64,000 bases of DNA, taken from Microgenomates group bacterium. Lineage in GTDB: Bacteria > Patescibacteriota > Microgenomatia > UBA12405. This document shows, in pieces, positions 3,619 through 63,202 of the stretch. The number at the start of each line of letters is the position of its first letter. Position 1 is the stretch's first letter. The notes under the pieces are model-generated. The model ran no database searches. It was given only the letters and a program-made list of their open reading frames with translations, and had not been told where the DNA came from. The translations under genes were made by a program, and so were the position numbers. The stretch is from contig JBAQNJ010000001.1 in NCBI GenBank assembly GCA_049303675.1, forward strand, positions 536,711-600,710, read 5' to 3'.

Positions 3619-4365
3619 ATGAAATCTAAATCACTTTATATAATTAAGAAAAAGACATCAGGACGCGATTCACAGGGCCATGTTTCAGTTCGTCATCGTG
3701 GTGGAGAAGAAAAGCGATTTATTCGGGTCATAGATTGGCAACGTTCCAAAATTGACGTCCCCGCCAAAGTCTTGGCCATCGAATACGATCCCAACCGGAC
3801 TGCTCAACTTGCTCTTATTATGTACATCGACGGTACTAGAGGTTATATTCTAGCTACTACCAATCTCAAAGTCGATGATGCGGTCATTGCCTCCGAAAAC
3901 GCTCCTATCAAAGATGGTAATCGCCTTCCACTTCGCAATATCCCTGTTGGAGTTGCCATTCATGGGCTCGAATTTCAGCCGGGCAAAGGAGCTCAGTTGG
4001 TTAAAAGTGCTGGTTCAGCCGCTTACATCCAAAGTATTGATGACAAAAAGGTCACTATTAAATTACCTTCAGGCGAATTAAGATTATTTAACGCCGAAAC
4101 TTGGGCAACCATTGGCCAAGTTAGCAATGCCGATCACTTCAACCAAAAATTAGTCAAAGCCGGAGATTCTCGCCATCGGGGTATCCGTCCTTCTGTTCGT
4201 GGTGTCGCTCAAAATCCTCACTCACATCCACATGGAGGTGGAGAGGGTAAGTCCAGTATTGGTATGAATCCCAAGACGCCTTGGGGCAAGCCAGCTATGG
4301 GCTATCGCACTCGAAAAAAGAAAAAAGCTTCCAACAAGTTAATTGTTCAACGACGTAAAAAGTAA
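3619..4365 (+). CDS. rplB: 50S ribosomal protein L2
   Basis: 248 aa. Conserved L2 C-terminal motifs GRDSQG, HPHGGGEGK and GMNPKTPWGKPA. The N-terminus is shorter than typical. Confidence 0.93.
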   Translation: MKSKSLYIIKKKTSGRDSQGHVSVRHRGGEEKRFIRVIDWQRSKIDVPAKVLAIEYDPNRTAQLALIMYIDGTRGYILATTNLKVDDAVIASENAPIKDGNRLPLRNIPVGVAIHGLEFQPGKGAQLVKSAGSAAYIQSIDDKKVTIKLPSGELRLFNAETWATIGQVSNADHFNQKLVKAGDSRHRGIRPSVRGVAQNPHSHPHGGGEGKSSIGMNPKTPWGKPAMGYRTRKKKKASNKLIVQRRKK

Positions 4366-4404
4366 CTTTTTACTTTTTCACTTTATAACTTTATAAACTA
4401 ACTT
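4366..4404 (+). repeat. CTTTATAA/AACTTTATAA tandem spacer motif upstream of rpsS
   Basis: Spacer ctttttactttttcactttataactttataaactaactt. Same motif family as spacers at 5779, 6683, 9447 and 9966. Confidence 0.6.
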
Positions 4405-5778: not shown

Positions 5779-5833
5779 TTTTATAACTTTAACTTTACAA
5801 ACTTTTAACTTTATAAACTTTATAAACTAAATT
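5779..5833 (+). repeat. AACTTTA(T/C)AA tandem spacer array upstream of rplP
   Basis: ttttataactttaactttacaaacttttaactttataaactttataaactaaatt holds about 5 degenerate units. Confidence 0.6.
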
Positions 5834-6707: not shown

Positions 6708-6732
6708 CTTTTAACTTTATAAACTAATTTCT
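6683..6732 (+). repeat. AACTTTATAA spacer array overlapping the rpsQ 3' end and preceding rplN
   Basis: Sequence gaactttcaactttataacttttaactttataaactaatttct. Confidence 0.55.
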
Positions 6733-9446: not shown

Positions 9447-9485
9447 CTTTATAACTTTATGAACTTTTAACTTTATAACTAACTT
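9447..9485 (+). repeat. AACTTTATAA spacer array upstream of rpsE
   Basis: Sequence ctttataactttatgaacttttaactttataactaactt. Confidence 0.6.
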
Positions 9486-9965
9486 ATGAACTCATCATTT
9501 GAAAACAAACAAATTCGCCATATGGATCGTCCTGAGTCTGAATTTACCGACAAAGTAGTCGAGATCAAACGTGTCAGCAAGAAGACCAAGGGTGGTAATC
9601 AAATTTCTTTTACCGCTCTGGTTGTTACTGGTGATAAAAAATCTCGTGTCGGGGTAGGTCATGCCCGAGCCAAGAGTGTCGCCGATGCAATTGCCAAGGC
9701 TATCCAAAAAGGCCGCAAATCCATTATGACTATCAATATTATCAACGGTACCATTGCTGATTCGATTAAATTAAAATTCAAGGGTGCCATAATTCTAATC
9801 CGTCCAGGCAAGCAGGGTAGCGGCTTAATCGCCGGAGGTCCAGTTCGCTCTGTTGTTGAATTAGCTGGTATTAAGGATATTGTTAGCAAAGTCATTGGTT
9901 CCAAGACCAAATCAGTTAATGTTTGGGCTACCTTCAAAGCTCTAGAACAATTCAAAAAAAACTAA
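9486..9965 (+). CDS. rpsE: 30S ribosomal protein S5
   Basis: 159 aa. dsRBD-like N-terminal domain plus the S5 C-terminal domain (GSGLIAGGPVRSV). Confidence 0.93.
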   Translation: MNSSFENKQIRHMDRPESEFTDKVVEIKRVSKKTKGGNQISFTALVVTGDKKSRVGVGHARAKSVADAIAKAIQKGRKSIMTINIINGTIADSIKLKFKGAIILIRPGKQGSGLIAGGPVRSVVELAGIKDIVSKVIGSKTKSVNVWATFKALEQFKKN

Positions 9966-10007
9966 TCTTTACAAACTTTATAAACTTTTAACTTTACAAA
10001 CTCTATT
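9966..10007 (+). repeat. AACTTTA(C/T)AA spacer array between rpsE and rplO, where rpmD is usually located
   Basis: Sequence ctaatctttacaaactttataaacttttaactttacaaactctatt. No L30 ORF is present here. Confidence 0.6.
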
Positions 10008-16102: not shown

Positions 16103-16579
16103 ATGAACCATCGTAAATTTGGCATCAAACTAGGACGCAATCGTCGCGAAAGAGAAGCACTTTTCAAATCTTTGGTCCGATCAGTTTTTACCCACGGTAC
16201 CATTCAAACCACTAGTGCCAAGGCAAGATCAGTTGTCCCCATCATTGAAAAACTCGCCAACCATATCATGGTCAAGGATGTTGTCCTAGCCTCACGCGAA
16301 CTTTCTACTTATATTCAGGACAAAAATCTAGTCAGTCAAATTGTTGCCAGTGCCAAATCAGCCTTTGCCGATCAAACTAGCAACTTCACCACCATGTCCA
16401 AAGTCAAAATCAGACTGGGTGACGATGCTCTTATTGTAAAGTTTGGTTTTGTTAAACCCTACAAACTAATCATTAAAGATAAAAAAGAAGTCATTAAAAA
16501 AGAAGCTGTTAAAAAAGAAGTTCTTAAAAAGGCAGTAGCGAAGAAAGTCGTTAAGTCAAAAGTTTCTAAAACAAAATGA
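16103..16579 (+). CDS. rplQ: 50S ribosomal protein L17 with Lys-rich C-terminal extension
   Basis: 158 aa. L17 core followed by a roughly 40-aa KKEVIKKEAVKKEV... tail. Confidence 0.9.
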   Translation: MNHRKFGIKLGRNRREREALFKSLVRSVFTHGTIQTTSAKARSVVPIIEKLANHIMVKDVVLASRELSTYIQDKNLVSQIVASAKSAFADQTSNFTTMSKVKIRLGDDALIVKFGFVKPYKLIIKDKKEVIKKEAVKKEVLKKAVAKKVVKSKVSKTK

Positions 16580-17664: not shown

Positions 17665-18408
17665 TTGCTACACTACTTTATGAGCTTTATCCAAGCCCTT
17701 ATCTTGGCCGTAGTCCAAGGCATCACTGAGTTTCTCCCCATTTCCTCTACGGGACATATCAATTTACTTCAGCATTTTTTTGGACTTAGTCCCTCACTCA
17801 CCTTTGATATTTTTCTAAATACAGCCAGTTTACTGGCAGTCATTTTCTATTTTCGTCAAAAAGTTCCCTATTTTTTCAAAAATTTCAAATATATTTTTGT
17901 GGGAACAATCCCCGCTCTTGTCGCCGGACTTTTTTTCAAAGATCAAATCGAAGTCATGTTCTCCTCTGTCCAAACTTTGCCCTATGAGTTTTTGTTTACC
18001 GCCATTCTCCTCTTATCATCCAAATATTTCAAACATCAGTCTCAATCCATTACCTACAAAAAATCCCTAGTTATAGGTATGTTCCAAGCCTTAGCTATTA
18101 TTCCTGCTATTTCTCGCTCTGGTTCAACTATTTTTGCCGCTCTACTATTGGGACTGGCGCCAATTGATGCCTTCAATTTTTCCTTTGCCCTACTAATACC
18201 CGCCTCAATTGGTGCGCTATTACTCGATATAAAAGAGCTAAGTAATTTGACTATTTTTGGTAGTCAAAATCTTATTGCCTTTTTTGTTTGTTTTTTCATT
18301 AGCCTTGCTTCACTCCACTATTTGCAAAAGATAATGGTCAATCGCTCACTGTGGAAATTTGGCTATTATTGTCTTTTCCTAGGAATGACACTACTCTTTG
18401 TTCTCTAG
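17665..18408 (+). CDS. uppP: undecaprenyl-diphosphate phosphatase
   Basis: 247 aa, 7-8 TM helices. The sequence carries GITEFLPISSTGH, the UppP/BacA signature. Confidence 0.85.
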   Translation: MLHYFMSFIQALILAVVQGITEFLPISSTGHINLLQHFFGLSPSLTFDIFLNTASLLAVIFYFRQKVPYFFKNFKYIFVGTIPALVAGLFFKDQIEVMFSSVQTLPYEFLFTAILLLSSKYFKHQSQSITYKKSLVIGMFQALAIIPAISRSGSTIFAALLLGLAPIDAFNFSFALLIPASIGALLLDIKELSNLTIFGSQNLIAFFVCFFISLASLHYLQKIMVNRSLWKFGYYCLFLGMTLLFVL

Positions 18409-18612: not shown

Positions 18613-19134
18613 ATGTTCAAACATATCACTATCGGCCCCAAAAGCCCTAAAATAGTCAATACCATTATCGAGATCACCAGTGAGACACGTAACAAATACG
18701 AATACGACGAAGAGTTAGGTATTATCAAGTTAGACAGAGTTCTCCATTCACCAGTTCACTATCCATTTGATTACGGATTCATCCCTGAAACTCTGTGTGA
18801 TGATGGCGATCATCTCGACGTCATGGTGATCACCAATGCCCCTACCTTCCCTGGCTGTCTAGTTGAGGTCAGGCCAATTGGTGCATTAATGATGGAAGAT
18901 GAACATGGCGGCGACGAAAAAGTCATCGCTGTACCTCTTCATAATCCTCAGTTTACTCATATCAAAAAACTAAAAGATTTATCACCCCATTTATTAGACG
19001 AAATTGAGCATTTTTGGCTTACCTACAAATTTTTGGAAAGAAAAAGTAAACCAGTCAAGCTCAGTGGTTGGATCAATCGCCTCGACACCTATCAGCTCAT
19101 CAAAGCGTCTCAGAAAAAACAGCAAAGCCAGTAA
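18613..19134 (+). CDS. ppa: inorganic pyrophosphatase (family I)
   Basis: 173 aa. EITSETRNKYEYD...DGDHLDVMVI pyrophosphatase motifs. Confidence 0.9.
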   Translation: MFKHITIGPKSPKIVNTIIEITSETRNKYEYDEELGIIKLDRVLHSPVHYPFDYGFIPETLCDDGDHLDVMVITNAPTFPGCLVEVRPIGALMMEDEHGGDEKVIAVPLHNPQFTHIKKLKDLSPHLLDEIEHFWLTYKFLERKSKPVKLSGWINRLDTYQLIKASQKKQQSQ

Positions 19135-19898: not shown

Positions 19899-20177
19899 TC
19901 AGCCACAGGCTGATCCGCCTTTGGCGGAAGCAACTTCTTTCAGTATTATATCTCTAATTTTTCTACCAAAACCACTTTTGTAAAAGATCTCTCTATTGGT
20001 AGCATCATCCTTACAAATATATTTTTCAAAATATACTAATTCAAAAGGTATATTCTCTGCAGTAAATTTATTCATACCTCTATTATGTTTATTTAGCCTT
20101 ATCTCTGGCAGTTGTGATGTTTTACCAGTATATATTTTTCCATTTCGCAAACTTCTCAAGAAGTATACAAAATACAT
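19899..20177 (-). CDS. GIY-YIG nuclease family protein
   Basis: 92 aa from the ATG at 20177, immediately 3' of tRNA-Pro. MYFVYFLRSLRNGKIYTGKT...R...HNRG matches the GIY-YIG motif layout. The TGA stop lies inside the duplicated tRNA fragment. Confidence 0.75.
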   Translation of the reverse strand: MYFVYFLRSLRNGKIYTGKTSQLPEIRLNKHNRGMNKFTAENIPFELVYFEKYICKDDATNREIFYKSGFGRKIRDIILKEVASAKGGSACG

Positions 20178-20180
20178 AAG

Positions 20181-20254
20181 TCGGGAATACTGGATTCGAA
20201 CCAGCAACCTCGCGCACCCCATGCGCGCGCGCTAGCCAATTGCGCCAATCCCCG
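20181..20254 (-). tRNA. tRNA-Pro (anticodon GGG)
   Basis: Hand-folded cloverleaf: acceptor CGGGGAT/ATTCCCG, D-stem GCGC/GCGC, anticodon stem CGCGC/GCGCG with loop AUGGGGU, T-arm GCTGG-TTCGAAT-CCAGT, discriminator A. CCA is not encoded. Confidence 0.85.
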
Positions 20255-20371
20255 TGGTTGTAGACACTATTATACTATCTATATTATCTTTTGCCTAACT
20301 TTAAGTATATTCGGGTTATCTTCGGTTTTGCCTCTTGACTTGATATAGTTACAATTGCTATTACTTATATA

Positions 20372-20423
20372 TTAATTCAAATTCAATTCGTAATTAGTAA
20401 TTCGTAATTTGTAATTAATTAAT
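20372..20423 (+). repeat. degenerate heptamer array (aattcgt/aattagt/aattcgt/aatttgt/aattaat) directly upstream of recA
   Basis: It is near-identical (31/33) to the array at 29108-29142 upstream of miaA. The same heptamer is tandemly repeated inside cca at 37919-37950. Confidence 0.6.
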
Positions 20424-21518
20424 ATGGCCAAGAAATCAAAGTCTACCAAAACTCCAATTACTGTTAACACCAAAATCAATGACTCACTTCATGGCAAAAA
20501 GCTAGAAGCTGTTCGTCTGGCAATGGATCAGATCACCAAATCATATGGTGAAGGTGCCATCATGAAAATGGGCGACAAGCAGGCCGACATGAAAGTCGAG
20601 TCGATCCCCACTGGTTGTCTTCCACTTGATATTGCTCTAGGTATTGGTGGTCTACCACGTGGTCGCATTACCGAAATTTTTGGACCCGAGGCCTCCGGCA
20701 AAACCACTATTTGTCTTCATGTTATCAAAGAAGCCCAGCGACTCGGTGGCACCGCCGCCTTTATCGACGCCGAGCACGCTCTCGACCCACTCCGAGCCCG
20801 AACTATTGGTGTAGATCTAGACAGTCTGCTGATTTCCCAACCCGACAACGGCGAGCAAGCTCTGGAAATAGTTGATACCCTCGTTCGTAGTAATGCTGTT
20901 GATGTCATCGTTATCGATTCTGTCGCCGCCCTCGTCCCCAAAGCCGAAATTGAAGGTGAGATGGGGGACTCTATGATGGGTCTACAAGCCCGTCTGATGT
21001 CTCAGGCGTTGCGCAAACTAACTGGTGCTATCAGTAAATCCAAAGCAGTTGTCATCTTCACCAACCAAATGCGCCAAAAGATTGGCGTCATGTTTGGTAA
21101 TCCTGAAACCACTACTGGTGGCTTAGCCCTCAAGTTTTATTCATCAGTTAGAATTGATGTTCGCAAAATCGCCAACATCAAAACACCCAGTGGTGAGGCA
21201 GTTGGTTCTCAACACCGTGCCAGAATTGTCAAAAACAAAGTCTCTCCTCCATTCAAAGAAGCCGAGTTTGATGTCATGAATACCGAGGGCATCTCTGTCT
21301 ACGGTAGTTTAGTTGATTTAGCCGTCACCCATGGCCTAATCACCAAATCAGGCGCCTTCTTCAAAGTCGATGGCCAAAACATTCAAGGCCGCGAAGGTAC
21401 CAAAAAGTATCTCAAGGAAAACCCTGTCGTAGCCGAGGGCATAACTACCAAAATTTGGGAACTAATCAAAAATCCCTTAGTCAAAAATGCAGATTCTTCA
21501 GATCAGCCCGAGTCGTAA
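20424..21518 (+). CDS. recA: recombinase RecA
   Basis: 364 aa. The sequence carries GPEASGKTT Walker A and RecA L1/L2 loop regions. Confidence 0.97.
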
Positions 21519-28026: not shown

Positions 28027-29100
28027 ATGTCCAAACTTAGTATCGGTATAGTTGGGTTGCCCAACGTCGGCAAATCCACTTTATTCAACGCCCTTTTAGG
28101 TAAAAAGGTGGCCGATGCCTCAAATTATCCTTTTTGTACCATCGATCCCAACGTCGGCGTAGTCGAAGTCCCCGACGAAAAATTATCTATTCTCGGCGAT
28201 ATTGTCAAAACCCAAAAAATAGTCCCCGCCATCGTCGAGTTCGTCGATATTGCCGGATTAGTCAAAGGTGCCTCCACTGGTGAGGGTCTGGGCAACAAAT
28301 TTTTAACCAACATTCGTGATTGCGATGCCATAATGCATGTCGTCCGTAATTTTCCTGATGAAAACATTATTCGTGAGGGTTCACTCGACCCTCAGGGTGA
28401 TTTTGAAGTCATCTGTACCGAATTGATTATCAAGGATCTAGAATCAGTCGACAAATATCTCAGTTCTTACAAAAATAATCCTAAGGAAAATACCTCCAAA
28501 AAATATCTCTTTGCCGCCAAATTAAAGTCCGAATTAGAAAAGGGGATTCTGACTATCAATATGTCCTTGAGCGATGAGGAGAAATTATTAGCCAAAGAAT
28601 TTTTCTTATTAACCAACAAGCCCTATTTTATTGTCGCCAATGTCGACGAGTCTGTTTACCAAAATTTATCTAGTTTCCAGTTTCCAATTTCCAGTTTCAA
28701 TACTGTCGTCCCAGTCTGTGCCAAAACAGAATTTGATCTATCCGAATTGGATAAAACCGATCAAACAAATTATCTAAAAGAATTAGGTATGGAAAAATCA
28801 GGTCTTGAACGAGTAATCCTCAAAGCCTACGAAACCTTGGGCCTACAGTCATATTACACTGCCGGTCTCAAGGAGACTCGGGCTTGGACCATCCCTACCG
28901 GAGCTACTGCCCCACAGGCTGCAGGTGCAATTCACACCGATTTCGAGCGGGGATTCATTATGGCCGAAATTGTCTCTTATTCAGATTTTGTCGCCAACAA
29001 TGGCATCGAAGGTGCCAAATCAAAGGGTCTTCTTCGCCATGAGGGCCGCGATTACATTATGCACCCCGACGATGTCGTCGAGTTCCGTTTTAATGTATAA
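28027..29100 (+). CDS. ychF: ribosome-binding ATPase YchF
   Basis: 357 aa. The sequence has [17 protein letters not shown] as G1, and the TGS domain ends with the motif [12 protein letters not shown]. Confidence 0.93.
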
Positions 29101-29107: not shown

Positions 29108-29142
29108 AATTCGTAATTAGCAATTCGTAATTTGAAATTGAA
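29108..29142 (+). repeat. degenerate heptamer array (aattcgt aattagc aattcgt aatttga aattgaa) at the miaA start
   Basis: Near-identical to the recA-upstream array. It overlaps the TTG start of miaA. Confidence 0.6.
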
Positions 29143-30043
29143 TAAACTACTAATCCTCTCCGGCCCCACAGCCACAGGGAAAACAGCGCTGGCCATTGAA
29201 ATAGCCCAAAAGTTCGCTGGCGAGTTAATTTCTGCCGATTCTCGTCAAATATATCGAGGTATGGATATTGGCACAGGCAAGGATCACCCCCCGAATATCA
29301 AAATTAATTTAATAGATATTATCAATCCCGATCAAAGTTTTTCTGTAGCGCAATTTAGGCAACTCGCTATTGAAAATATCAACGAAATTCATAGTCAAAA
29401 TAAACTTCCAATTATTGTCGGTGGCACTGGTCAATATATCGATGCCCTCGTCAATCCCCGCCCCACTTTTGCCATCCCTCCCCACAACTTTTTACGCTTT
29501 TTTCTGAATCACCTTCCGCTAAAATTTCTTCAACATACTTTAAAAACTTTGGACTTTAAAACTTTCAACTCACTTAACAATTCCGATCTCCACAACCCCC
29601 ACCGTCTTATAAGAAAAATAGAAATAAGATTATCAAAAAAAAAGATTGCAGATTGTAGTTTGAAGATTGAAGATTATGATATTCTCCATCTTTCTCTCAC
29701 TGCCCCAAACCAATTTCTTTACTCTCGTGTCGACACCCGTGTCCAGTCCCGTCTCGATGCTGGACTATTAGCCGAAATCAAAATGTTATTAAAAAAATAT
29801 AAATGGACTGACCCTGGATTAAACACTCTTGCCTATATGGATTTTAGACCATATTTTGTAGAGACGCCATATATGGCGTCTCTACTCTCTCGTTGTATTG
29901 AATCATGGCGTTTTGCCGAACATGCTTATGTTCGTCGCCAAAAAACATGGTTTAAGAAAATTAATCCGCTTTTTATCGATATCTCCACCGCAGGGTATAA
30001 AAAAAATCTCATGACCAAAATTAATAAATGGTACAATCAGTAA
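29132..30043 (+). CDS. miaA: tRNA dimethylallyltransferase
   Basis: TTG start. The sequence carries LILSGPTATGKT and SADSRQIYRGMDIGT as MiaA motifs. Confidence 0.88.
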   Translation: MKLNKLLILSGPTATGKTALAIEIAQKFAGELISADSRQIYRGMDIGTGKDHPPNIKINLIDIINPDQSFSVAQFRQLAIENINEIHSQNKLPIIVGGTGQYIDALVNPRPTFAIPPHNFLRFFLNHLPLKFLQHTLKTLDFKTFNSLNNSDLHNPHRLIRKIEIRLSKKKIADCSLKIEDYDILHLSLTAPNQFLYSRVDTRVQSRLDAGLLAEIKMLLKKYKWTDPGLNTLAYMDFRPYFVETPYMASLLSRCIESWRFAEHAYVRRQKTWFKKINPLFIDISTAGYKKNLMTKINKWYNQ

Positions 30044-31032
30044 TGAAAGCCCAGCGAATTGAAATATCCACCAAGACAATTGTATTTACCGTTTCCTTTT
30101 TACTCGGGCTTTGGCTGCTGTGGTTTTTGCGCGATATTATTTTACTCATGTTTATTTGTGTGATTTTTATGGAGGTCCTCAATCCTGCTATCAGCACTCT
30201 CCAGAATTTTAAAATCCCTAGGTTTCTCAGCATTATCTTTATCTACACCGTGGTCATTAGCTTTATTAGTTTTATGCTAGCTTGGGTCATTCCTATATTA
30301 GTTAGCGAGACATCTGGACTACTTCGAGTTTTACCAGACTCTCTCCAAAACATAAACATCATGGGGTTTTCCGCCATCGATTTGTCATCTCAATTTAAAA
30401 TTCTTGAGTCAATTCCTGCCAATGTCGCTTGGACAGTAATTTCCTTTTTTTCCAATTTATTTACTGGCTTTCTCATCCTAGTTATCACCTTTTATCTACT
30501 AATTGAGAGAGAAAAATTAGACGACTACACCGCCATGTTTTTTGATTCAAAGGGGCAGGATATAGTCAAAAGTGTTTTCAATAAAGTCGAGAAGAGGCTT
30601 GGTCGCTGGGTCAACGGCGAGCTTATTTTGATGTCCGTGATTGGTATCTTGTCATACTTGGGATATGTTTCAGTTGGTCTAAACTATGCCCTTCCTTTAG
30701 CTATTATAGCTGGATTACTAGAAGTAGTTCCTACTGCTGGACCAATTGCCGCGACAATTCTGGCTGCCCTTGTTGGACTGACCACCTCCCCCTTAACTGC
30801 TTTATTTGCAGTTTTCTGGGGAATTATTGTTCAGCAATTAGAAAACAATTTTATAGTCCCCAAAATCATGAATGCTGCCGTCGGTCTCCACCCCATTATT
30901 ACCATTCTCGTCATTACCATCGGTGCCAAGTTTGCCGGTGTTGGTGGCGCCCTACTTGCCGTGCCTGTTTATATTACTTTTGAGACTATCGTCCGCTCCA
31001 TTTTGGAGTGGAAAAAAAGTGCTTCCAAGTAG
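30028..31032 (+). CDS. AI-2E family transporter (UPF0118/PerM-like)
   Basis: 334 aa, about 8 TM helices, overall AI-2E topology. Confidence 0.75.
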   Translation: MVQSVMKAQRIEISTKTIVFTVSFLLGLWLLWFLRDIILLMFICVIFMEVLNPAISTLQNFKIPRFLSIIFIYTVVISFISFMLAWVIPILVSETSGLLRVLPDSLQNINIMGFSAIDLSSQFKILESIPANVAWTVISFFSNLFTGFLILVITFYLLIEREKLDDYTAMFFDSKGQDIVKSVFNKVEKRLGRWVNGELILMSVIGILSYLGYVSVGLNYALPLAIIAGLLEVVPTAGPIAATILAALVGLTTSPLTALFAVFWGIIVQQLENNFIVPKIMNAAVGLHPIITILVITIGAKFAGVGGALLAVPVYITFETIVRSILEWKKSASK

Positions 31033-31311
31033 CCGATAAGCCGAATTCTGTTTAGGAACCATTTATCTATTCTCTTTACCTGAGACTCTCGAAAGAGAGA
31101 TATTAACGTCTCGACTCAAGATTTCCACCAAAGGGTTGCTCGTTTCATTTCAGGCGCCGGAGCTTCTTGCGAAGGCGACCCCATCTCGTCTCTGTAGCAG
31201 CGCCCCTAGCTTGCGCCAGTGTCTACTTTTTCGACCTTTGTTCTTTCTGTGGTTCGGACTTTCCTGCCGCGATTTTTAAAATCGGGCTTGATTCCTCAAC
31301 TACTTGGAAGC
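31021..31311 (-). ncRNA. rnpB: RNase P RNA (reduced bacterial type)
   Basis: Minus strand carries P4 5' strand AGGAAAGTCCGAAC and P4 3' strand ACAGAATTCGGCTTA with compensatory GAA/TTC changes. A 12-bp P1 (GCTTCCAAGTAG/CTACTTGGAAGC) closes the ends. P3-like hairpin CGATTTTAAAAATCG. Confidence 0.65.
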
Positions 31312-31325
31312 AACTACATTCTACC

Positions 31326-31362
31326 AAAAAAAATCCCCCCGAGCTTGTCGAGGGGGATTTTT
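31326..31362. terminator. bidirectional terminator hairpin
   Basis: AAAAAAAATCCCCCCGAGCTTGTCGAGGGGGATTTTTT lies 3' of the minus-strand small gene and 5' of rnpB. Confidence 0.6.
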
Positions 31363-31372
31363 TAAGTACTTA

Positions 31373-31549
31373 CTACGACAATAAAGCTGCATCTGCAGCG
31401 GATAGTATTTTGAACATTTTAGTTCCGGTCTCTGGATCGACTGCTTCTGCTGCTGGTCTACCGTTCTTCAACATTACTTTTTTAACCTTACTGACATCAA
31501 CCTCGACGGATTTTCGAGATTTTACTGAATAAAATTTTATTACTGGCAT
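31373..31549 (-). CDS. 58-aa basic small protein with strong SD; tentative Sul7d/SH3-like nucleic-acid-binding fold
   Basis: ATG at 31549 preceded by AGGAGGTG (9-nt spacer), TAG at 31373-31375, then a terminator hairpin. Translation MPVIKFYSVKSRKSVEVDVSKVKKVMLKNGRPAAEAVDPETGTKMFKILSAADAALLS. Missed by the ORF track because it is under 60 aa. Confidence 0.6.
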   Translation of the reverse strand: MPVIKFYSVKSRKSVEVDVSKVKKVMLKNGRPAAEAVDPETGTKMFKILSAADAALLS

Positions 31550-35516: not shown

Positions 35517-36374
35517 ATGAATGTAATGAAATTCCGCCCCCTATTTTATCTTGTTTCCAGTTTCCTGTTACTAGTTTCTGCATTTTCTATTGCCAAATGG
35601 GGATTTCGCCTCTCCTCCGATTTTACCGGCGGCTCGGTCTGGGAAATTCAATTTAACCAAGCACCTGATATCAGTTCAGTCAACCAAGTTTTTGCCGATC
35701 AAAAAATAGACCTTTCCAGCCAACAAATTGACCAAAACAAATTGACTCTCCATTTTTCCCATATCTCCCATCCTCAAAAAGAAGTACTAGACCAGAAAAT
35801 AAAAACCATCGATCCCAAATTCACTGAATTAAAGTTCGAAACTACTGGTCCAATTTTAGGCAAGGAGCTGATGCGCAAGACCATCATCGCTATTATTCTA
35901 TCTTCATTTGCTCTGCTAATTTTTATTGGCTCCAAATTTAGTGACTTTTCCTTTGGTGTTTCCGCAGTATTGGCCATGTTACACGATGCTTTTATTCTAC
36001 TCGGTGCCTTTTCCCTTCTGGGACACTTTTTCGGGGCGCAGCTTGATTCTCTTTTTGTAACGGCACTGTTGACCACACTCTCCGCCTCAGTTCATGACAC
36101 AGTTGTTACCTTTGACCGTATTCGTGAATTACGCCGGAAAAATTTCAAAATAGATTGGGAAAATCTCGCCAATCAGGCAGTTTCTGAGGTTATTGTCCGC
36201 TCTATCAACAATTCTATGACTATTATTTTTATGTTGTTGTCTCTAGTTATGTTGGGTGGAGCTATTACCCGCTGGTTTGCCCTAGCTTTACTTATTGGTG
36301 TAATTTGTGGCACTTATTCTAGTACCGGTGTCGCCATTCCCTTAGTTCTGTTTTTCAAGAAAAATAAAAAATAA
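35517..36374 (+). CDS. secF: protein translocase subunit SecF
   Basis: 285 aa. The SecF N-terminus is DFTGGSVWEIQF, followed by a six-TM C-terminal domain. Confidence 0.9.
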   Translation: MNVMKFRPLFYLVSSFLLLVSAFSIAKWGFRLSSDFTGGSVWEIQFNQAPDISSVNQVFADQKIDLSSQQIDQNKLTLHFSHISHPQKEVLDQKIKTIDPKFTELKFETTGPILGKELMRKTIIAIILSSFALLIFIGSKFSDFSFGVSAVLAMLHDAFILLGAFSLLGHFFGAQLDSLFVTALLTTLSASVHDTVVTFDRIRELRRKNFKIDWENLANQAVSEVIVRSINNSMTIIFMLLSLVMLGGAITRWFALALLIGVICGTYSSTGVAIPLVLFFKKNKK

Positions 36375-36662: not shown

Positions 36663-36980
36663 ATGATAGAAAAAATCCTCGTTCAAATAGAAGGGTTAAT
36701 AAATTCTAAATCAAAACTAGGTACAATTCGTGGCGTCCGATTCGAGGGGGAGGAAATCACCCCAGCATTAGAAACAGTCGCCACCGTTCTTGGAGTCAAT
36801 ATAGCCGAGCCCAAAGTGGACACTGATAATTCCAACTATCACCAAATCAGATCTCGTCTTTATTCGACCGCAGCCCATAGTGATATTATAGTCGAGCTAA
36901 GAAGTGTTGAGGGTAAAAATATAGCCGTCTTTGTCACCAAAACTCCCGTCGCAATTGTACAGAAATTGTTGCAAGGTTAG
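36663..36980 (+). CDS. hypothetical protein
   Basis: 105-aa ORF with no recognised family. Confidence 0.4.
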   Translation: MIEKILVQIEGLINSKSKLGTIRGVRFEGEEITPALETVATVLGVNIAEPKVDTDNSNYHQIRSRLYSTAAHSDIIVELRSVEGKNIAVFVTKTPVAIVQKLLQG

Positions 36981-38317
36981 GCCATATCTCTAATCTTCTG
37001 AAGTAGCACTTCTCTCACATTCAAACTCACATCTTTTTCTACTTCTTCAAACAGAGCATCCAGCACTTCACCCACTTTTCGGCTCGGTTTAATATTTAGA
37101 GTTTCCATTACATCCAGCCCATCTACTTTTAGATCTTTGACCGAAAAAGGTTGTTTTTGCACTTCGACAAATCGTTTTTTGAGTAGTTCCCAGCGCCAGC
37201 TCGTTTCCTTAGCCCCGCTGCCTATCCTATCAGCCCGCCGCAGGTCAATCATCTCCTCTAGGTATTCTGGTGTCACATTGCGAATTAGGCGTCGTACCGC
37301 GCTATCAGTTTGTAGTTCCGTAGCCGTAAACATATGCCATCGCACCAGTCTAAATAATTTATCTAATTCTTTATTAGACAGTCTTAATCTTTTACCAATT
37401 TTATTGGCAATTCTACTGCCAATAATGTCGTGATTATGAAAAGTATTAATGCCATTTATTGTTTTCATCACTACCGGCTTGCCTATATCGTGAATCAGTG
37501 TCGCCAATCTAGTGATTGGATCATTAGTTTGGCAATTTCGCAGTGCCTCGAGGCTGTGGGTGAAGACATCGTATATATGGTGACCTCGCTGTTTCATTCC
37601 TTCCCCCACCAAAATTTCTGGCATAATTTCCGCCAACAATCCGGCATTTTTCAGCATCTTAATTCCATCTACAGCCTGATCACTCGCCAATATTTTAAAC
37701 AATTCATCTCGCACCCGCTCCGCTGCAATCTTATTAATTAATGGGGCATTATTTTGGATGGCTCCAAACGTTTTTTCTTCTATTATAAATTCAATTTGGC
37801 AGGCGATACGGATCGCCCGCATCATTCGCAGGGCATCTTCCTTAAATCTCTCCTCTGGATTTCCCACCGCCCGAATAATTTTATTTTTAAGATCATTTTG
37901 CCCATCATATGGGTCAATAATTCGTAATTCGTAATTCGTAATTCGTAATTCCAACGCGATAGCGTTGACCGTAAAATCTCTCCTCTCTAAATCCTCTTCA
38001 ATTGTCTTTCCCCACTCCACCTTGTCCGGATGTCGATTATCACTATATTCCCGCTCCGTGCGATAAGTGGTTATTTCAAAAATCTCCCCGTCTGGATTAA
38101 CTATACTAAATGTCCCATAGTCATTCTCGCAAAAACTATTTTTCGGGAAAATCTTTTTCATTTCCTCGGGAGTGAGGTTGGTGGCAAAATCCCAATCTTT
38201 TACCTCTCGTCCTAGCATCAAATCTCTTACCGCCCCTCCCACCACAAAAATCTCAGATTTATTATCTGAGAATTTTTTCATAACCTTAGTTACTTTCTCT
38301 GGCAATTTCATTTCCAT
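36977..38317 (-). CDS. cca: CCA-adding tRNA nucleotidyltransferase with HD domain
   Basis: 446 aa. Pol-beta NTase head (VVGGAVRDLMLG...DWDFAT) plus HD domain (LIHDIGKP). Confidence 0.85.
   Translation of the reverse strand: MEMKLPEKVTKVMKKFSDNKSEIFVVGGAVRDLMLGREVKDWDFATNLTPEEMKKIFPKNSFCENDYGTFSIVNPDGEIFEITTYRTEREYSDNRHPDKVEWGKTIEEDLERRDFTVNAIALELRITNYELRIIDPYDGQNDLKNKIIRAVGNPEERFKEDALRMMRAIRIACQIEFIIEEKTFGAIQNNAPLINKIAAERVRDELFKILASDQAVDGIKMLKNAGLLAEIMPEILVGEGMKQRGHHIYDVFTHSLEALRNCQTNDPITRLATLIHDIGKPVVMKTINGINTFHNHDIIGSRIANKIGKRLRLSNKELDKLFRLVRWHMFTATELQTDSAVRRLIRNVTPEYLEEMIDLRRADRIGSGAKETSWRWELLKKRFVEVQKQPFSVKDLKVDGLDVMETLNIKPSRKVGEVLDALFEEVEKDVSLNVREVLLQKIRDMA
37919..37950. repeat. heptanucleotide tandem repeat (aattcgt) x4.5 inside the cca CDS
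   Basis: aattcgtaattcgtaattcgtaattcgtaatt encodes the peptide repeat ELRITNYELRI. The same heptamer arrays occur upstream of recA and miaA. Confidence 0.8.
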
Positions 38318-41643: not shown

Positions 41644-41699
41644 CCTCCTTGTCAAGGGAGGGGGATGTCACGACTAATGTCGTGACAAGGGGCTGGGTT
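41644..41699 (+). repeat. structured hairpin repeat element, copy a
   Basis: ccctccttgtcaagggaggg, then the TGTCACGAC-TAAT-GTCGTGACA hairpin, then aggggctgggtt. Same architecture as copies at 44372, 45485, 48028, 53591 and 63388. Confidence 0.75.
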
Positions 41700-41716
41700 A
41701 AATATATAATTCCTCT

Positions 41717-44423: not shown

Positions 44424-45461
44424 TTATTTTATATAACTATCCTTTACTGCCGTCACATAGGCGGCAAACTTACCATCGCCTTCAAACACATAAATTGGTT
44501 GTAAATAATTTGTTAGGCTAATTGGCTCAAAATAAGCCAAATATATGTTTCGTATCGCCACATTATTGGCCACCACATCCGATGCTGGCCAATAGTTCCC
44601 TGACTTTAGGTCATTAAATGCTTCCTCAGCTGTTTTTATAGGATAAGTAGAATATATCTCTCGGTCTATGTTGGCATATTTATAATTTACTTCGACTACT
44701 TTTCTCCCCTCCGTTTGTGAGCCAGTAACTAGCACCGACACCGATGCACCATTAATATCTGTCGACATTATTTTCATATTGTCGGCAATAACTTTTCTAA
44801 AGAAGTCTACCTTAACAATATTTGCCTCGGACAAGGATGAGACCGATTTTAGTCCCTCAAATCCTATTTTCCAAAAGCTAACTTTAGCATCCCCTTCGAC
44901 TAAATCAGTCGGGAATTTACTTCCTCCTGACAAATATCCCTTGGCAATATTAACCGCCTCTTCCTTAGTGGGCATCTTTTCCGGATTCAGCAATAGTTGG
45001 TCACTTTCATACGGGTATTTAAGGCTAAAACTGCCATCCAATACATTCATAGTCAGTGTCAAGTTCAGGCTATCATTTTTGAATTCATAGACCCCATATT
45101 TTACTTCACTTGGCTTACCCACAAATCCGAGGTCTCTGGCAGTAATCGTATCCTGATCTAAGGCCAAAAAAGTATTATCCGGTCTAGTAATTACAAACAC
45201 CCTCGCTTGATCTTTGTAGACTGGAAACTTGTCGCTGGCCAGCTCAGTCGTAAAATTTTTCTTTTCAAATTTTTTCTCAGGGAAAACCGTCTTGGGCAAC
45301 AATCCAAATTTTACATCGGGGGGAGTATAGGGTGGATGGGCTCGGACATAGGCCGCAATCCCCATCCCAATCAACATGTACAATCCTGTAAAAATAGCAA
45401 TTCCCACTCCTCCGTATTTTATTATTTTCCGACTAACATAAGCTGTGTGCGTCAAAGACAT
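44424..45461 (-). CDS. hypothetical membrane-anchored protein
   Basis: 345 aa, one N-terminal TM helix then a large extracytoplasmic domain. No confident family. Confidence 0.45.
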   Translation of the reverse strand: MSLTHTAYVSRKIIKYGGVGIAIFTGLYMLIGMGIAAYVRAHPPYTPPDVKFGLLPKTVFPEKKFEKKNFTTELASDKFPVYKDQARVFVITRPDNTFLALDQDTITARDLGFVGKPSEVKYGVYEFKNDSLNLTLTMNVLDGSFSLKYPYESDQLLLNPEKMPTKEEAVNIAKGYLSGGSKFPTDLVEGDAKVSFWKIGFEGLKSVSSLSEANIVKVDFFRKVIADNMKIMSTDINGASVSVLVTGSQTEGRKVVEVNYKYANIDREIYSTYPIKTAEEAFNDLKSGNYWPASDVVANNVAIRNIYLAYFEPISLTNYLQPIYVFEGDGKFAAYVTAVKDSYIK

Positions 45462-45484
45462 AAAATATTCTACATTATTTTAAG

Positions 45485-45516
45485 TCTCCCTTGTTAAAGG
45501 GAGATTTAGAGGGATT
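45485..45516 (+). repeat. structured hairpin repeat element, copy c
   Basis: tctcccttgttaaagggaga plus agagggattgaa. The ends are identical to copy f at 48028-48093. Confidence 0.7.
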
Positions 45517-45519
45517 GAA

Positions 45520-46959
45520 ATGCTAAAATATCCCATGTCTTCTACTACTGTTCGTACCCGTATTGCGCCTAGCCCCACTGGTGAATATCATATTGGTCAT
45601 CTTCGCACCTGTCTTTACGACTATGCCCTAGCTCGCCAAAGTGGCGGTCAGTTTGTCATTCGTATTGAGGACACCGACCAAAAAAGATTTGTCCTCGGTG
45701 CTACCGAGAAAATTTTAGAGGTAATCAAAGATTATGGTCTCACTTGGGACGAAGGTCCTGATGTTGGTGGTCCCTATGCTCCCTATATCCAGACCCAACG
45801 TCTGTCCACCTATCAACCGATAGTCGACGAACTAGTCAAAAAAGGCCATGCATATCACTGTTTTTGCAGCCAAGAGACCCTCGACCAGATGCGTGAAGTC
45901 CAAAAAGCTGCCAAAAAAATACCCAAGTATGACCGTCGTTGTCTCAAACTGACTCCAGAGGAAATTAAGACCAAGATAAACAATGGTGAGCAGTCTGTTA
46001 TCCGCATGCGTATTCCAGATCGTGAGACCATCGAATTTACCGATCTTATTCGTGGCAAAATAAAATTTAACTCGAGTGATATCGACGATCAGGTACTTAT
46101 AAAATCAAATGGCATTCCCACCTATCACTTTGCCGTGGTGGTCGATGACCATCTCATGAACATTACTCATATTTTTAGGGGTGAGGAGTGGATCACCTCT
46201 ACCCCCAAACAAATTTTACTTTATCGTTTTATGGGTTGGGATGTCCCTCTCTTTGCTCACTTGACGGTTCTGCTCGATCCGGGTGGACAGAAAAAAATGA
46301 GCAAGCGTAGCGGTTCTGTTTCCGCTCGTTCATTCTTGGATGACGGTTATTTGCCCGAAGCTATGCTAAATTTTCTGATGCTACTAGGGTGGAACTCCGG
46401 CACGGAAAAAGAGATATTCTCCCTCGAAGAATTTGTCAAAGAATTCAGCCTCGATCATTTACACAAAAAATCTCCAGTTTTTGATCGCCAAAAATTAGAT
46501 TATTTTAACGGATTATATATTCGTCGGTTATCTGACGAAAAATTATTTGCTTATTTCAAAAATTTTTTACCCTCAGCCAGCGACGAACAAGTAAAAATAT
46601 TAGCTCCAGTCTTAAAGGAACGAATCGTCAAATTTTCCGATTTAAAAGAATCACTTAAATTTTTATTTGAAGACGTTGTCTACGACAAAGAATTATTACT
46701 CAAGAAGGGGACTAGTGTCGAAGTTGCTCGCGATATGTTGACTCAGACAAAAAATGTTTTTATAGATTTTACAGATTTACAGCCCAAGATAGACAGTTTA
46801 ATTGCTGATAATAATTGGAGCAAGGGCGAATACTTTATGGTACTCAGAGTGGCTATCTATGGTTCTGCTTTTACTCCCCCAGTGGTCGAATGTCTACCCG
46901 CTCTGGGTCCAGAAAAATCCATTCACAAATTAGATCTGGCCATCAATTTGCTAAAATAA
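45520..46959 (+). CDS. gltX: glutamate--tRNA ligase
   Basis: 479 aa. The HIGH motif is PSPTGEYHIGHLRT, and the KMSKS motif is KMSKRSGS. Confidence 0.92.
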   Translation: MLKYPMSSTTVRTRIAPSPTGEYHIGHLRTCLYDYALARQSGGQFVIRIEDTDQKRFVLGATEKILEVIKDYGLTWDEGPDVGGPYAPYIQTQRLSTYQPIVDELVKKGHAYHCFCSQETLDQMREVQKAAKKIPKYDRRCLKLTPEEIKTKINNGEQSVIRMRIPDRETIEFTDLIRGKIKFNSSDIDDQVLIKSNGIPTYHFAVVVDDHLMNITHIFRGEEWITSTPKQILLYRFMGWDVPLFAHLTVLLDPGGQKKMSKRSGSVSARSFLDDGYLPEAMLNFLMLLGWNSGTEKEIFSLEEFVKEFSLDHLHKKSPVFDRQKLDYFNGLYIRRLSDEKLFAYFKNFLPSASDEQVKILAPVLKERIVKFSDLKESLKFLFEDVVYDKELLLKKGTSVEVARDMLTQTKNVFIDFTDLQPKIDSLIADNNWSKGEYFMVLRVAIYGSAFTPPVVECLPALGPEKSIHKLDLAINLLK

Positions 46960-56627: not shown

Positions 56628-57740
56628 ATGCGCCGCCAATATCTCTGGTATTCACTAATATTCATATCAATCCTCATTATCTTCGGGGCACTTTATGGTA
56701 TTTTTAGCCTCAAAAAAATTATCGTTAGCCCTATCGCTCCAACCCCACTGCCTACCTCAATTCTACCTACGCCCACCTCTGATCCAGATGCTGAGTTCTC
56801 AGTTCTCTTGCTCGGTTATGGCGGCGGTCTGCATGATGGCGGTGCCCTAACTGATTCAATTATCCTTGCCAATATTCGTCCTCACGACCGGAAAATCAGT
56901 CTCATCTCTATTCCTCGTGACCTTTGGGTAGAATTGCCAGTCGGTACTAGTACCCCCTATTTTTCCAAACTAAATTCCGCCTATCCCTATGGCAATGACG
57001 ACAAAAAATTCCCCGACAAACTGCCCCAATTTACCGGTCCTGCCGGCGGCGGCCAAATGGTTTCCTCAGTTGTCTCCCAAGTCACCGGCAAAACAGTTAA
57101 CTATTTTTTAGCCGTTGATTTTGCCGGTTTTACCAAAGCTGTCGATGTCTTGGGTGGGATTGATCTGCGGATCACTCAGCCTTTTACCGACAAATTTTAT
57201 CCCCTCGAAATCGGTACCACCGATACCTGCGGCAAGTCAGGAGAAGAGATTATCGCCCTCGAAGCCACCATGTCCGGTGACAAACTGGATCAGCAGTTTA
57301 CCTGTCGTTACGAAACACTGGCTTTTTCGGTAGGTACTACTCATTTGGATGGCGCCACTGCTCTCAAATTCGCCCGTTCCCGCCACTCTGAGTTTGACGG
57401 GGGGGACTTCAATCGCAGCAGTCGCCAGCGTCAAGTTATCTTAGCTATCAAATCTAGGGTAATTAATTTCAACTTTATTAGTAAAATCATCCCCCTACTT
57501 CGGACTTTATCGTCTCACCTCCGCACCAATATTCCCTTATCAACGATGGAGTCTCACTTATCTCGGGCCAGTGAGTTTTCTCAATATCAGGTGACCTCTG
57601 TTTCACTTAATGACAAAAATGTTCTCCTCCAAAGTTTCCAAAATCGCCAGTCAGTTCTCATACCCACCGGTGGGGTGAATAATTATTCTGAAATAATCCA
57701 ATATATTCTCGATCAGCAAACCACAAATTCTAAATTCTAA
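56628..57740 (+). CDS. LytR-CpsA-Psr (LCP) family protein
   Basis: N-terminal TM helix. LLLGYGGG...DSIILANIRP...ISIPRDLWVELP matches the LCP core. Confidence 0.85.
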   Translation: MRRQYLWYSLIFISILIIFGALYGIFSLKKIIVSPIAPTPLPTSILPTPTSDPDAEFSVLLLGYGGGLHDGGALTDSIILANIRPHDRKISLISIPRDLWVELPVGTSTPYFSKLNSAYPYGNDDKKFPDKLPQFTGPAGGGQMVSSVVSQVTGKTVNYFLAVDFAGFTKAVDVLGGIDLRITQPFTDKFYPLEIGTTDTCGKSGEEIIALEATMSGDKLDQQFTCRYETLAFSVGTTHLDGATALKFARSRHSEFDGGDFNRSSRQRQVILAIKSRVINFNFISKIIPLLRTLSSHLRTNIPLSTMESHLSRASEFSQYQVTSVSLNDKNVLLQSFQNRQSVLIPTGGVNNYSEIIQYILDQQTTNSKF

Positions 57741-58888
57741 ATTAATCCCTTTATGGTTTTCTCAATCATCTTCGGTACCTCTTTATCCAAAATAGACGGC
57801 AGCAAGTTAGTGACACTTAGATTAGGCAAATTATATTCAAAAATAGCCTTAGCCACCGCCAATTTTATCTCAATTGTCACCTTATTAATCTTGGCACTCA
57901 GTAACCCCTTAAACATCCCAGGGTAGGCCAGAGCATTATTGATTTGATTATCATAGTCAGATCTACCGGTAGCCACTATCATTGCTCCGGCTTTTTTGGC
58001 CTCATCGGGCATTATTTCTGGACTAGGGTTGGCCATGGCAAATATAATCGGTTCTGGCGTCATTTGTTTGATCATTTCTGGGGTCAATATATTCGGTCCC
58101 GACACCCCGATAAATACATCGGCATTTTTTAATCCCTGCCCCAAAGATTCTGTTTTTGTTTGTCCTGTCAGTTTTGCCATCTCCATTTTGTATTTATCCA
58201 TCTCAGTCCGGTCCGAGGATACCAATCCCTTAGAATCAAACAATTTTATCGACTCGATTGGCAAATCAGAGGCGTGTAGCAATCTCGTAATCGCATTTCC
58301 TGCTGCCCCCGCCCCCACAACTACTACATTTATTTTTTTAAATTTTAAATTCAAAATTTTAAATTTTATATGCAGTGCTCCTCTCAGTGCTGCCAGGCAG
58401 ACTATCGCCGTCCCATGTTGATCGTCATGGACAATTGGTATATCCAATTCTTCACTCAATCTCTTTTCAATTTCAAAACAGCGTGGCGCTGAGATGTCTT
58501 CGAGGTTTATAGCGGCAAAGTTTACCGAAATCGCCTTAACTATTTTAATTATTTCCTCGGTGTCTTGGGTGTCTAGGCATATCGGAAAAGCATTTAGCCC
58601 CGCAAATTCTTTAAAGATGACACATTTCCCCTCCATTACTGGCAGTGCCGCTCTTGCCCCGATATTCCCAAATCCCAACACCGCCGTCCCATCCGATATC
58701 ACTGCCACCATCTTGCCAGCAATTGTATAGTCCCGTACTAGATCCGGATTGTCTTTGATTGCCATACATATTTTACCTACATTTGGGGTGTATATTTGCG
58801 ACAAATCGTCTCTCGTCTCTACTTTTACAGTGTTACAAATTTCTAGCTTACCAATATTTTTTTTATGTATTTCAAACGTATCGGTCAT
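57737..58888 (-). CDS. NAD(P)-dependent malic enzyme (short bacterial type)
   Basis: 383 aa. Malic enzyme N-terminal and NAD-binding (VVVGAGAAGNAI) domains. Contains an in-frame AT-rich insert encoding IKFKILNLKFKKINVV. Confidence 0.85.
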   Translation of the reverse strand: MTDTFEIHKKNIGKLEICNTVKVETRDDLSQIYTPNVGKICMAIKDNPDLVRDYTIAGKMVAVISDGTAVLGFGNIGARAALPVMEGKCVIFKEFAGLNAFPICLDTQDTEEIIKIVKAISVNFAAINLEDISAPRCFEIEKRLSEELDIPIVHDDQHGTAIVCLAALRGALHIKFKILNLKFKKINVVVVGAGAAGNAITRLLHASDLPIESIKLFDSKGLVSSDRTEMDKYKMEMAKLTGQTKTESLGQGLKNADVFIGVSGPNILTPEMIKQMTPEPIIFAMANPSPEIMPDEAKKAGAMIVATGRSDYDNQINNALAYPGMFKGLLSAKINKVTIEIKLAVAKAIFEYNLPNLSVTNLLPSILDKEVPKMIEKTIKGLI

Positions 58889-63051: not shown

Positions 63052-63131
63052 GACTATTTATCAATTCTATCAAAATTCGAATCCACGCTGGGGTGATGAG
63101 TTATAGGGATAAAATTTGTGCCTAAAAACTG

Positions 63132-63202
63132 TTACCCCGCATGGATTCGAACCACAATCACGAAGTTCAGAGCTTCGTGTCCTACCATTAGACGACGGGG
63201 TA
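63132..63202 (-). tRNA. tRNA-Gln (anticodon CUG)
   Basis: Hand-folded: acceptor TACCCCG/CGGGGTA, D-arm GTCT-AATGGTA-GGAC, anticodon stem CGAAG/CTTCG with loop CUCUGAA, T-arm TGTGG-TTCGAAT-CCATG, discriminator A. Confidence 0.8.

Follow-up and report, generated by a model that had tools for sequence, protein, structure and literature searches.

Background

The over-representation of tandem heptamer repeats has been known since 1990 and 2007: Mazel is said to have described the short tandemly repeated repetitive (STRR) heptamers of cyanobacteria in 1990, and Mrazek reportedly followed in 2007 with heptanucleotide long simple sequence repeats (SSRs). Very small mobile repeats (small dispersed repeats, SDRs) were reportedly found in Nostoc by Elhai in 2008. 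Here we analysed 64 kb of contig JBAQNJ010000001.1 (assembly GCA_049303675.1; this whole stretch is called the window below) from a Microgenomates group bacterium, in which arrays of the heptamer AATTCGT lie inside cca, the gene of the CCA-adding tRNA nucleotidyltransferase, and directly before recA and miaA. On balance we consider that these arrays belong to the class of heptanucleotide direct repeats that includes long SSRs, STRR sequences and the TAACTGA repeats, that they arose by slippage with some copying and were filtered by selection, and that they are neither a phase switch nor a regulator of recA and miaA. The case extends heptamer repeats to the Candidate Phyla Radiation (CPR). The Cca protein has an identical counterpart in a metagenome-assembled genome of a Microgenomates group bacterium (GCA_049287145.1, a single contig of 998,417 bp), and the nearest relatives are from Candidatus Shapirobacteria (CPR, Microgenomates).

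The closest described system is TAACTGA, a heptamer direct repeat of marine Beggiatoaceae, cyanobacteria and Bacteroidetes (MacGregor 2015, PMC4679880); read forward it has stops in three frames, read in reverse it is open, and its copies within open reading frames (ORFs) are reversed (PMC4679880). Heptameric SSR over-representation and the hypothesis of an origin by slippage (or from a polymerase footprint) have been summarised (PMC4692102). Two translational elements are also relevant: the epsilon enhancer of phage T7 gene 10, UUAACUUUA (PMC9590205), and ribosomal protein bS1, which is present, generally shortened, in most CPR (PMC9297842).

Results

Heptamer arrays at cca, recA and miaA

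The original prediction had placed a perfect heptamer array within cca and two degenerate arrays at the starts of recA and miaA, and all three were recovered at those places. Tandem arrays were called with Tandem Repeats Finder (TRF) and gene domains with Pfam, which gave the following features.

36977..38317, minus strand: cca, CCA-adding tRNA nucleotidyltransferase with HD domain (Pfam PolyA_pol 1.6e-35, PolyA_pol_RNAbd, HD)
37918..37951, minus strand: perfect heptamer array within cca (TRF period 7, 4.9 copies, 100% matches)
20328..20355, plus strand: promoter-like site upstream of the recA array, TTGCCT-16-TACAAT overlapping TTGACT...TATTAC (consensus scan)
20372..20423, plus strand: recA 5' leader of AATT-type heptamer units (core array 20385-20417, TRF)
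20424..21518, plus strand: recA (Pfam RecA 6.7e-129)
29108..29139, plus strand: miaA leader array (TRF), overlapping the TTG start
29132..30043, plus strand: miaA, tRNA isopentenyltransferase (Pfam IPPT 6.9e-46)

The cca array reads AATTCGT on the plus strand and ACGAATT on the coding strand, where it encodes the peptide ELRITNYELRI. Before recA, the core array (AATTCGT AATTAGT AATTCGT AATTTGT AATT) leaves a gap of 6 nucleotides (nt) to the ATG at 20424, and degenerate units extend back to about 20372; before miaA, the array (AATTCGT AATTAGC AATTCGT AATTTGA AATT) takes up the whole 31-nt spacer that follows the stop of ychF (29100). These two leader arrays were identical at 30 of 32 positions, or 31 of 33 counting the preceding C, and had in common the unit order CGT-AGY-CGT-TGW, which was found nowhere else. 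Copy numbers of the three AATTCGT arrays were 4.9, 4.7 and 3.6. That such arrays are non-random was borne out by counts over the window: 14 period-7 arrays were found where a third-order Markov model expected 2.0 (about 7-fold), and the 11-mer AATTCGTAATT, with at most one mismatch, occurred 13 times against 3.6 expected, a number that none of 100 shuffles reached.

The recA array most likely lies in the 5' untranslated region, the putative transcription start being placed from sequence at the promoter-like block. As for miaA, the gene lacks an ATG, and its only candidate starts are the TTG codons at 29132 and 29138, inside the degenerate last units of the array; the array may thus have created or replaced the miaA start codon.

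Read forward, an AATTCGT array meets a TAA in each of the three frames; its reverse complement has no stop in any of them and translates as TNYELRI. With stops in one direction and none in the other, a forward copy can last only in a non-coding spacer and a reverse copy only in a coding loop. This asymmetry explains why the arrays stand forward in the two leaders and reversed in cca.

Comparison with described repeats

Several features link the AATTCGT arrays with TAACTGA: i) a 7-nt unit in arrays of about 2-6 copies; ii) a mostly intergenic, forward position a few nt from a start codon, seen here for two of the three window copies and for those in L073 and L383 (L-numbers label the examined loci and P-numbers the Cca homologs); iii) the orientation rule, the cca copy being reversed relative to its gene; iv) repeat-bearing leaders without a Shine-Dalgarno (SD) sequence; v) occurrence within ribosomal-protein operons; vi) a patchy cross-phylum spread that includes cyanobacteria and Bacteroidetes. 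On the other hand, the unit here is AATTCGT (with AACTTTA, ATACTTA and AATTCCT as siblings), that is, a sibling unit and not the same repeat; the host belongs to the CPR and has a genome of about 1 Mb in which several units coexist; the copies within ORFs lie as beta-hairpin extensions in the catalytic head domain of essential enzymes and not at protein termini; and turnover at orthologous junctions is documented here.

Like STRR sequences and long SSRs, the arrays are tandem heptamers over-represented in intergenic DNA, and AATTCGT arrays themselves occur in many Nostocales. However, the canonical STRR units are other sequences, and the cyanobacterial arrays frequently reach far greater lengths and show no link to start codons, whereas those of the CPR have only 3-6 units and take up entire operon spacers. 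Phase-variable SSR loci such as the heptamer tracts of Haemophilus hmw likewise have a unit that is not a multiple of 3, within an ORF or in the 5' region, but the target here is an essential housekeeping gene, the tract is short and no length polymorphism was seen among assemblies. Epsilon of T7 resembles the leader arrays in being A/U-rich, G-free and 5' of a start codon; it differs in acting together with an SD sequence and by a proposed pairing to 16S helix 17, and AATTCGT is another sequence. Finally, SDRs and REPINs (PMC3116915) are very short dispersed repeats with hairpin-forming units, sometimes in frame, and these match GC-rich hairpin inserts in the Cca and MiaA loops of relatives, whereas AATTCGT arrays are direct repeats without a hairpin or a known mobilising enzyme. 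No RAYT-like gene was identified within the 64-kb window, where not all ORFs were scanned.

The array inside cca

Translation across the array gives ...RRDFTVNAIA-LELRITNYELRI-IDPYDG, and the best Protein Data Bank match of the product is the CCA-adding enzyme 6IBP (8e-56). Among 60 homologs the usual state of this loop was short (NAMA-DIxG-xIxD), as it is in 6IBP. Against the short-loop homologs and 6IBP the net gain is 5 residues (15 nt), and not the clean in-frame insert of 21 nt that had been supposed. An AlphaFold2 model (mean predicted local distance difference test score 87.9) places the array-encoded residues in a beta-hairpin (strand 121-125, turn 126-129 (ITNY), strand 130-134), whose two strands are the two ELRI copies. 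Thus the model shows the array encoding a predicted five-residue extension of a beta-hairpin. For annotation this is a warning: where a housekeeping enzyme contains a periodic peptide such as ELRITNYELRI, this is a loop extension derived from a repeat and not a functional motif.

Array-encoded ITNYELRI was also found in P0012, P0014 and P0015, and in a neighbour-joining tree it falls in three separate clades beside short-loop sisters. The equivalent 35-nt slot of P0048 is occupied by another heptamer, AATTTTC, and at least nine homologs have inserts coding PP..PSL.K.GG-type peptides; in P0013, the only one of these for which cca DNA was fetched, the insert consists of GC-rich hairpins adjoining a leftover ACGAATT unit. 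Sequence comparison shows the Cca loop as an indel hot spot that was struck repeatedly by inserts in relatives.

Between the window and P0012, the cca arrays were identical at 33 of 33 positions, although the whole genes were 71% identical and the third positions of conserved codons 54%. Such identity between diverged genes implies that the nucleotide sequence was maintained or re-acquired, and not simply inherited neutrally. The comparison of repeat-unit numbers that the original prediction had proposed gave no difference: the slot measured 35 nt in four species (protein identity 73-77%), and the array sequence was identical across independent assemblies of P0012 and of P0014. Moreover, each 90% protein cluster of Cca holds a single sequence, with no +/-3-unit variants on record. 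Both tRNA genes of the window, tRNA-Pro(GGG) (20180-20254, minus strand) and tRNA-Gln(CTG) (63131-63202, minus strand), lack an encoded 3' CCA; Cca is therefore needed, and a frameshift in cca should be lethal.

GC-rich hairpin inserts were observed in frame in the cca of L206 (the P0013 gene, 61-1452) and in the miaA of L203 (about 17881-17899), in the same loops as heptamer arrays of the window. Examples from relatives are GTTCCGGCTATGGCCGGAAC, CCCTCCCTTGACAAGGAGGG and CCCCCCTTTTCAAGGGGGG, and the inserts translate to peptides such as PPLKKGG, PSLDKEGK and SPPFQGGIKGG. In L105, a CCCCCC...GGGGGG element resembling these inserts flanks an AATTCGT array.

Other tandem arrays in the window

AATTCGT had been presented as a motif of three sites, but the window has several tandem units of 7-9 nt, and AATTCGT is one among them. 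Arrays of period 8 and period 9 numbered 8 and 10 against 2.2 expected (about 4-fold). All nine strong intergenic arrays, whatever their unit, ended 0-13 nt 5' of a plus-strand start; they comprised five of AACTTTA type in the S10/spc ribosomal-protein operons, one of ATACTTA, one of AAATTTTT before S10 and the two of AATTCGT, with units of 7-9 nt. Within coding sequence there were five heptamer arrays, in cca, ychF, miaA and the genes at 35517 and 57737. Arrays other than those of AATTCGT include the following, listed together with ychF.

4363..4396, plus strand: leader array of TAACTTTA type, between L2 and S19
5785..5828, plus strand: leader array of AACTTTA type, between S3 and L16
6691..6722, plus strand: leader array of AACTTTA type, between S17 and L14
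9444..9480, plus strand: leader array of TAACTTTA type, between L18 and S5
9963..10006, plus strand: leader array of TAAACTTTA type, between S5 and L15
35472..35511, plus strand: leader array of ATACTTA x5.7, whose end is 6 nt 5' of the ATG at 35517 (fold z = +0.28)
35553..35578, plus strand: in-frame GTTTCCA array in the SecF-like gene 35517-36374, with the same unit as the ychF array
28027..29100, plus strand: ychF (Pfam YchF-GTPase_C, MMR_HSR1), with an in-frame AGTTTCC array at 28672-28698
29642-29675, plus strand: in-frame AAGATTG array in miaA
58336..58368, no strand assigned: TTTTAAA x4.7 array inside the minus-strand ORF 57737-58888
5789-5797, 5805-5813, 6711-6719, 9467-9475 and 9988-9996, plus strand: copies of TTAACTTTA in ribosomal-protein leaders

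The last of these is the exact 9-mer TTAACTTTA of T7 gene 10 epsilon, which occurred six times in the window against 1.65 expected (0 of 100 shuffles reached six). Five of the six copies lay on the mRNA strand of four ribosomal-protein leaders, as part of the AACTTTA-type arrays.

Shine-Dalgarno scarcity and leader folding

SD-like 4-mers at -20 to -4 were present in only 5 of the 65 confidently called genes of the window. Array leaders had a G content of 2.8% against 13.7% in non-array leaders (p = 1e-4), and a mean minimum free energy (MFE) around the start of -2.27 against -6.5 kcal/mol (p = 1.2e-4), the comparison being limited to non-array leaders of at least 25 nt as it is otherwise confounded by the upstream coding sequence of tightly packed genes. 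Compared with their own shuffles, array leaders folded no better (e.g., z = -0.89 for recA and +0.72 for miaA), and no Rfam family matched the leaders. These properties are those expected of SD-independent initiation regions, and from composition and folding we infer that the leaders may function as such.

In the ribosomal-protein operons of the clade, adjacent genes were typically joined tightly by TAA-(A)CT(T)-ATG. In contrast to the array leaders, the leaders with the intergenic hairpins TCTCCCTTGTTAAAGGGAGA and GTCACGACTAATGTCGTGAC (45461-45520 and 41660-41716), which lie upstream of genes, fold strongly, with MFE down to -23 kcal/mol.

Gain, loss and swapping among close relatives

Leaders of relatives were reached via exact-protein look-ups of Cca and SecY homologs; a metagenome scan anchored on RecA returned only relatives at 57-70% identity. 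Among the loci compared, L382 has a SecY 88% identical to that of the window, and its recA leader was compared after realignment of a gene call that is truncated at the N-terminus. The promoter-like block of recA was kept in L382 and partly in L383, and the leader 3' of the block differed: L382 had three degenerate units (AATTCTT AATTGTT AATTAAC), and in the recA leader of L383 the array was not found. In an independent assembly, L388, the recA array was identical, which is weak evidence against polymorphism as L388 may stem from the same population as the reference genome. The miaA array was not found at the orthologous ychF-miaA junction of L203, L205 and L207; the spacer measured roughly 220-280 nt and held a non-conserved small ORF in L203 and L205, and the two genes overlapped in L207.

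Elsewhere the same unit turned up at other junctions. An AATTCGT array precedes rpsS in L383, and one of 4.6 copies precedes an S4-domain, pseudouridine-synthase-like (rsuA-like) gene in L073 (Shapirobacteria UBA2283). At the L2-S19 junction, AACTTTA arrays in the window and in L382 correspond to an AATTCGT array in L383. Before S3 and L16, L382 has AATTCCT units, one base off AATTCGT. Junctions of ribosomal-protein genes that are filled by arrays in the window measured only 1-5 nt in L383-L385, and L382 had arrays at junctions that hold none in the window. Across the relatives compared, the arrays at ribosomal-protein junctions are thus dispensable and interchangeable. The AACTTTA arrays start precisely at the upstream TAA, and at their other end they run into the native ...CT(T)ATG junction, which relatives without an array also have.

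Protein loops behave alike. In L207, AATTTTC occupies the variable loops of cca, miaA and ychF (10361-10390, 18034-18064 and 18977-19006) and encodes LKIENF-type peptides. The comparisons of these loci show that each genome of the clade has its own dominant units at several sites, and that between close relatives orthologous sites have gained and lost arrays and had them resized or exchanged. The clade amounts to a compact natural experiment in which, at one and the same junction or protein loop, some close relatives have an array and others lack it, or differ in its length or its unit.

Distribution beyond the clade

The pattern AATTCGTAATTNGNAATTCGTAATT was found at 120 or more loci against about 0.07 expected, in Nostocales, other cyanobacteria, Bacteroidota, Acidobacteriota, Chloroflexota, Ignavibacteria, Planctomycetes and Shapirobacteria. 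These loci also bear arrays of 107 other heptamer units, about 18 such arrays in every 100 kb where control loci have 1.8; TAACTGA arrays were absent from the AATTCGT-bearing loci. Of random positions 74% lay deep in an ORF, but only 5% of the cross-phylum AATTCGT arrays did; we used this contrast of intergenic and ORF positions alone and not start-codon proximity, for which the definition of ORF starts was too loose (control rate 16%). Neighbouring arrays in other genomes differed stepwise by single-base changes. As for a 28-nt super-unit conserved across phyla, the candidate was rejected, the full unit order being confined to the two leaders of the window.

Perfect arrays of 3.5 copies were counted in a viral collection, which gave 45 loci for AATTCGT, 54 for TAACTGA, 43 for ATACTTA and 13 for AACTTTA. 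Four permutations of AATTCGT with the same composition gave 0, 2, 8 and 9 loci, making AATTCGT commoner by 5-fold or more. Thus some heptamers are preferred.

Inverted pairs of the form (ACGAATT)n ... (AATTCGT)n, 15-70 nt apart, were frequent in Acidobacteriota, Chloroflexota and Bacteroidota (L009, L013, L014, L019, L029, L035, L087, L091, L094, L095 and L098) and would form long hairpins; some stand directly before start codons, e.g., before rplV in L087.

Discussion

Origin and role of the arrays

The AATTCGT arrays are probably members of the heptanucleotide direct-repeat class. Slipped-strand mispairing would create and homogenise such arrays, with some copying between sites, and selection would then filter where they can stay. 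Leader arrays would give ribosomes a structure-free place to land and initiate without an SD sequence, or would at least not stand in the way of this, and would also halt any read-through that comes from the gene before. Local slippage is suggested by the AACTTTA arrays, which end at native junctions, together with the single-base grading of neighbouring arrays. Copying between sites is suggested by the unit order common to recA and miaA, the genome-specific units and the patchy pattern in Cca. A genome of roughly 1 Mb should shed useless DNA, yet arrays fill operon spacers before essential genes. Two questions become testable: whether arrays are functional SD-independent leaders, and how they spread.

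Several points weigh against this account: i) its translational part draws on composition and folding only; ii) sister genomes do without arrays at the same junctions, so that the arrays may simply be tolerated; iii) any co-directional spacer of a compact genome adjoins a start codon, so that start proximity is partly trivial; iv) pure slippage leaves the excess of AATTCGT over its permutations (45 loci against 0, 2, 8 and 9) unexplained; v) it also leaves unexplained the identical unit in the Cca loop of three separate clades; vi) the data come from a 64-kb window out of a 998-kb genome.

The strongest rival is a small templated or mobile repeat, by which arrays and GC-rich hairpin inserts would be copied from site to site, perhaps between genomes, and not expanded by local slippage. 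We regard it as alive, at clearly lower probability. The original prediction had offered either a small mobile repeat or a regulatory or translation-initiation element, and a spreading repeat and a translation-initiation element both fit the evidence, a regulator specific to recA and miaA being the part that does not. Copying would account for the unit order CGT-AGY-CGT-TGW of the recA and miaA arrays, found only there, but their variants cluster at the CpG position, so that the common order may have come about by chance, with odds that we put at roughly 1 in 25 to 1 in 50. It agrees with the use of one unit at several sites per genome (three in the window; AATTTTC at three in L207), with the patchy gain and loss in Cca over three clades, with a cca array that is nucleotide-identical despite near-saturated synonymous sites, with the leftover ACGAATT unit beside the P0013 hairpin inserts, and with the spread of AATTCGT across phyla at 5-fold or more above its permutations. 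However, within the window, where not all ORFs were scanned, terminal inverted repeats, target-site duplications and a linked transposase-like gene were not seen and the flanks are without duplication; moreover, both the boundaries of the AACTTTA arrays, at the upstream TAA and the native junction, and the grading of neighbouring arrays by single bases point to local expansion.

A sequence-specific binding site for a conserved factor that recognises RNA or DNA, be it bS1, a Csp-like protein or a segment of rRNA as for epsilon of T7, is improbable; it would make recA and miaA part of a post-transcriptional network. Forward arrays directly 5' of starts without SD, the preference for particular heptamers across the biosphere and the exact TTAACTTTA in four ribosomal-protein leaders would suit such a site, as would the presence of bS1 in most CPR (PMC9297842), and the same hypothesis was raised for TAACTGA (PMC4679880). 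Yet one unit can stand in for another at the same junction in relatives, and some have no array there at all, several unrelated units coexist in one genome, and the array-led genes have no common function. A bolder proposal, which we hold to be a long shot, is as follows: preferred heptamers (AATTCGT, TAACTGA, ATACTTA, AACTTTA and others) would be cross-phylum plug-in leaders, copied from a template and recognised by a translation component such as bS1, which would allow SD-independent loading between any two genes, and the same process would seed in-frame beta-hairpins in essential enzymes.

Much weaker still is a transcriptional operator, LexA-like or other, common to recA and miaA, which we consider very improbable. 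In its favour are the position of the two 31/33-identical arrays directly upstream of both genes and the fact that no other SOS-box candidate was noted. But miaA follows ychF after 31 nt with no promoter-like gap, the recA array lies downstream of the conserved promoter block, and the array is a direct repeat and not a palindrome. The array is also not conserved, being absent at miaA in three relatives and at recA in L383 and degenerate at recA in L382, AATTCGT precedes rpsS and an rsuA-like gene in relatives, and seven other leaders of the window carry other units. With junction arrays dispensable and interchangeable, an ancient regulator dedicated to recA and miaA is ruled out. Least credible of all is the SSR-type phase variation of cca first suggested, in which one-unit slippage would switch the gene off and on: a unit that is not a multiple of 3 lies within an ORF, so that a unit change alters the frame, it is perfect over 4.9 copies, and heptamer tracts do drive phase variation in Haemophilus, but there are about 5 units only, cca is a housekeeping and not a surface or restriction-modification gene, its loss should be lethal with tRNA-Pro and tRNA-Gln lacking an encoded CCA, and the slot is equal in length in four species, identical in independent assemblies and represented by one sequence per 90% cluster.

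Additional features of the window

The RNase P RNA (31028-31304, minus strand) scored highest with the archaeal Rfam model RF00373 (107 bits, full length), above the bacterial models, and a mechanical ORF overlapping it (31167-31532) is probably spurious. Next to tRNA-Pro, the longest-ORF call of a GIY-YIG gene (19899-20222) overlaps the tRNA gene, and the GIY-YIG gene probably begins further inside this ORF. At the 3' end of the L17 gene (16103-16579), a repeat with a 15-nt period (x3.4, 16480-16530) codes a lysine-rich KKEV-type tail.

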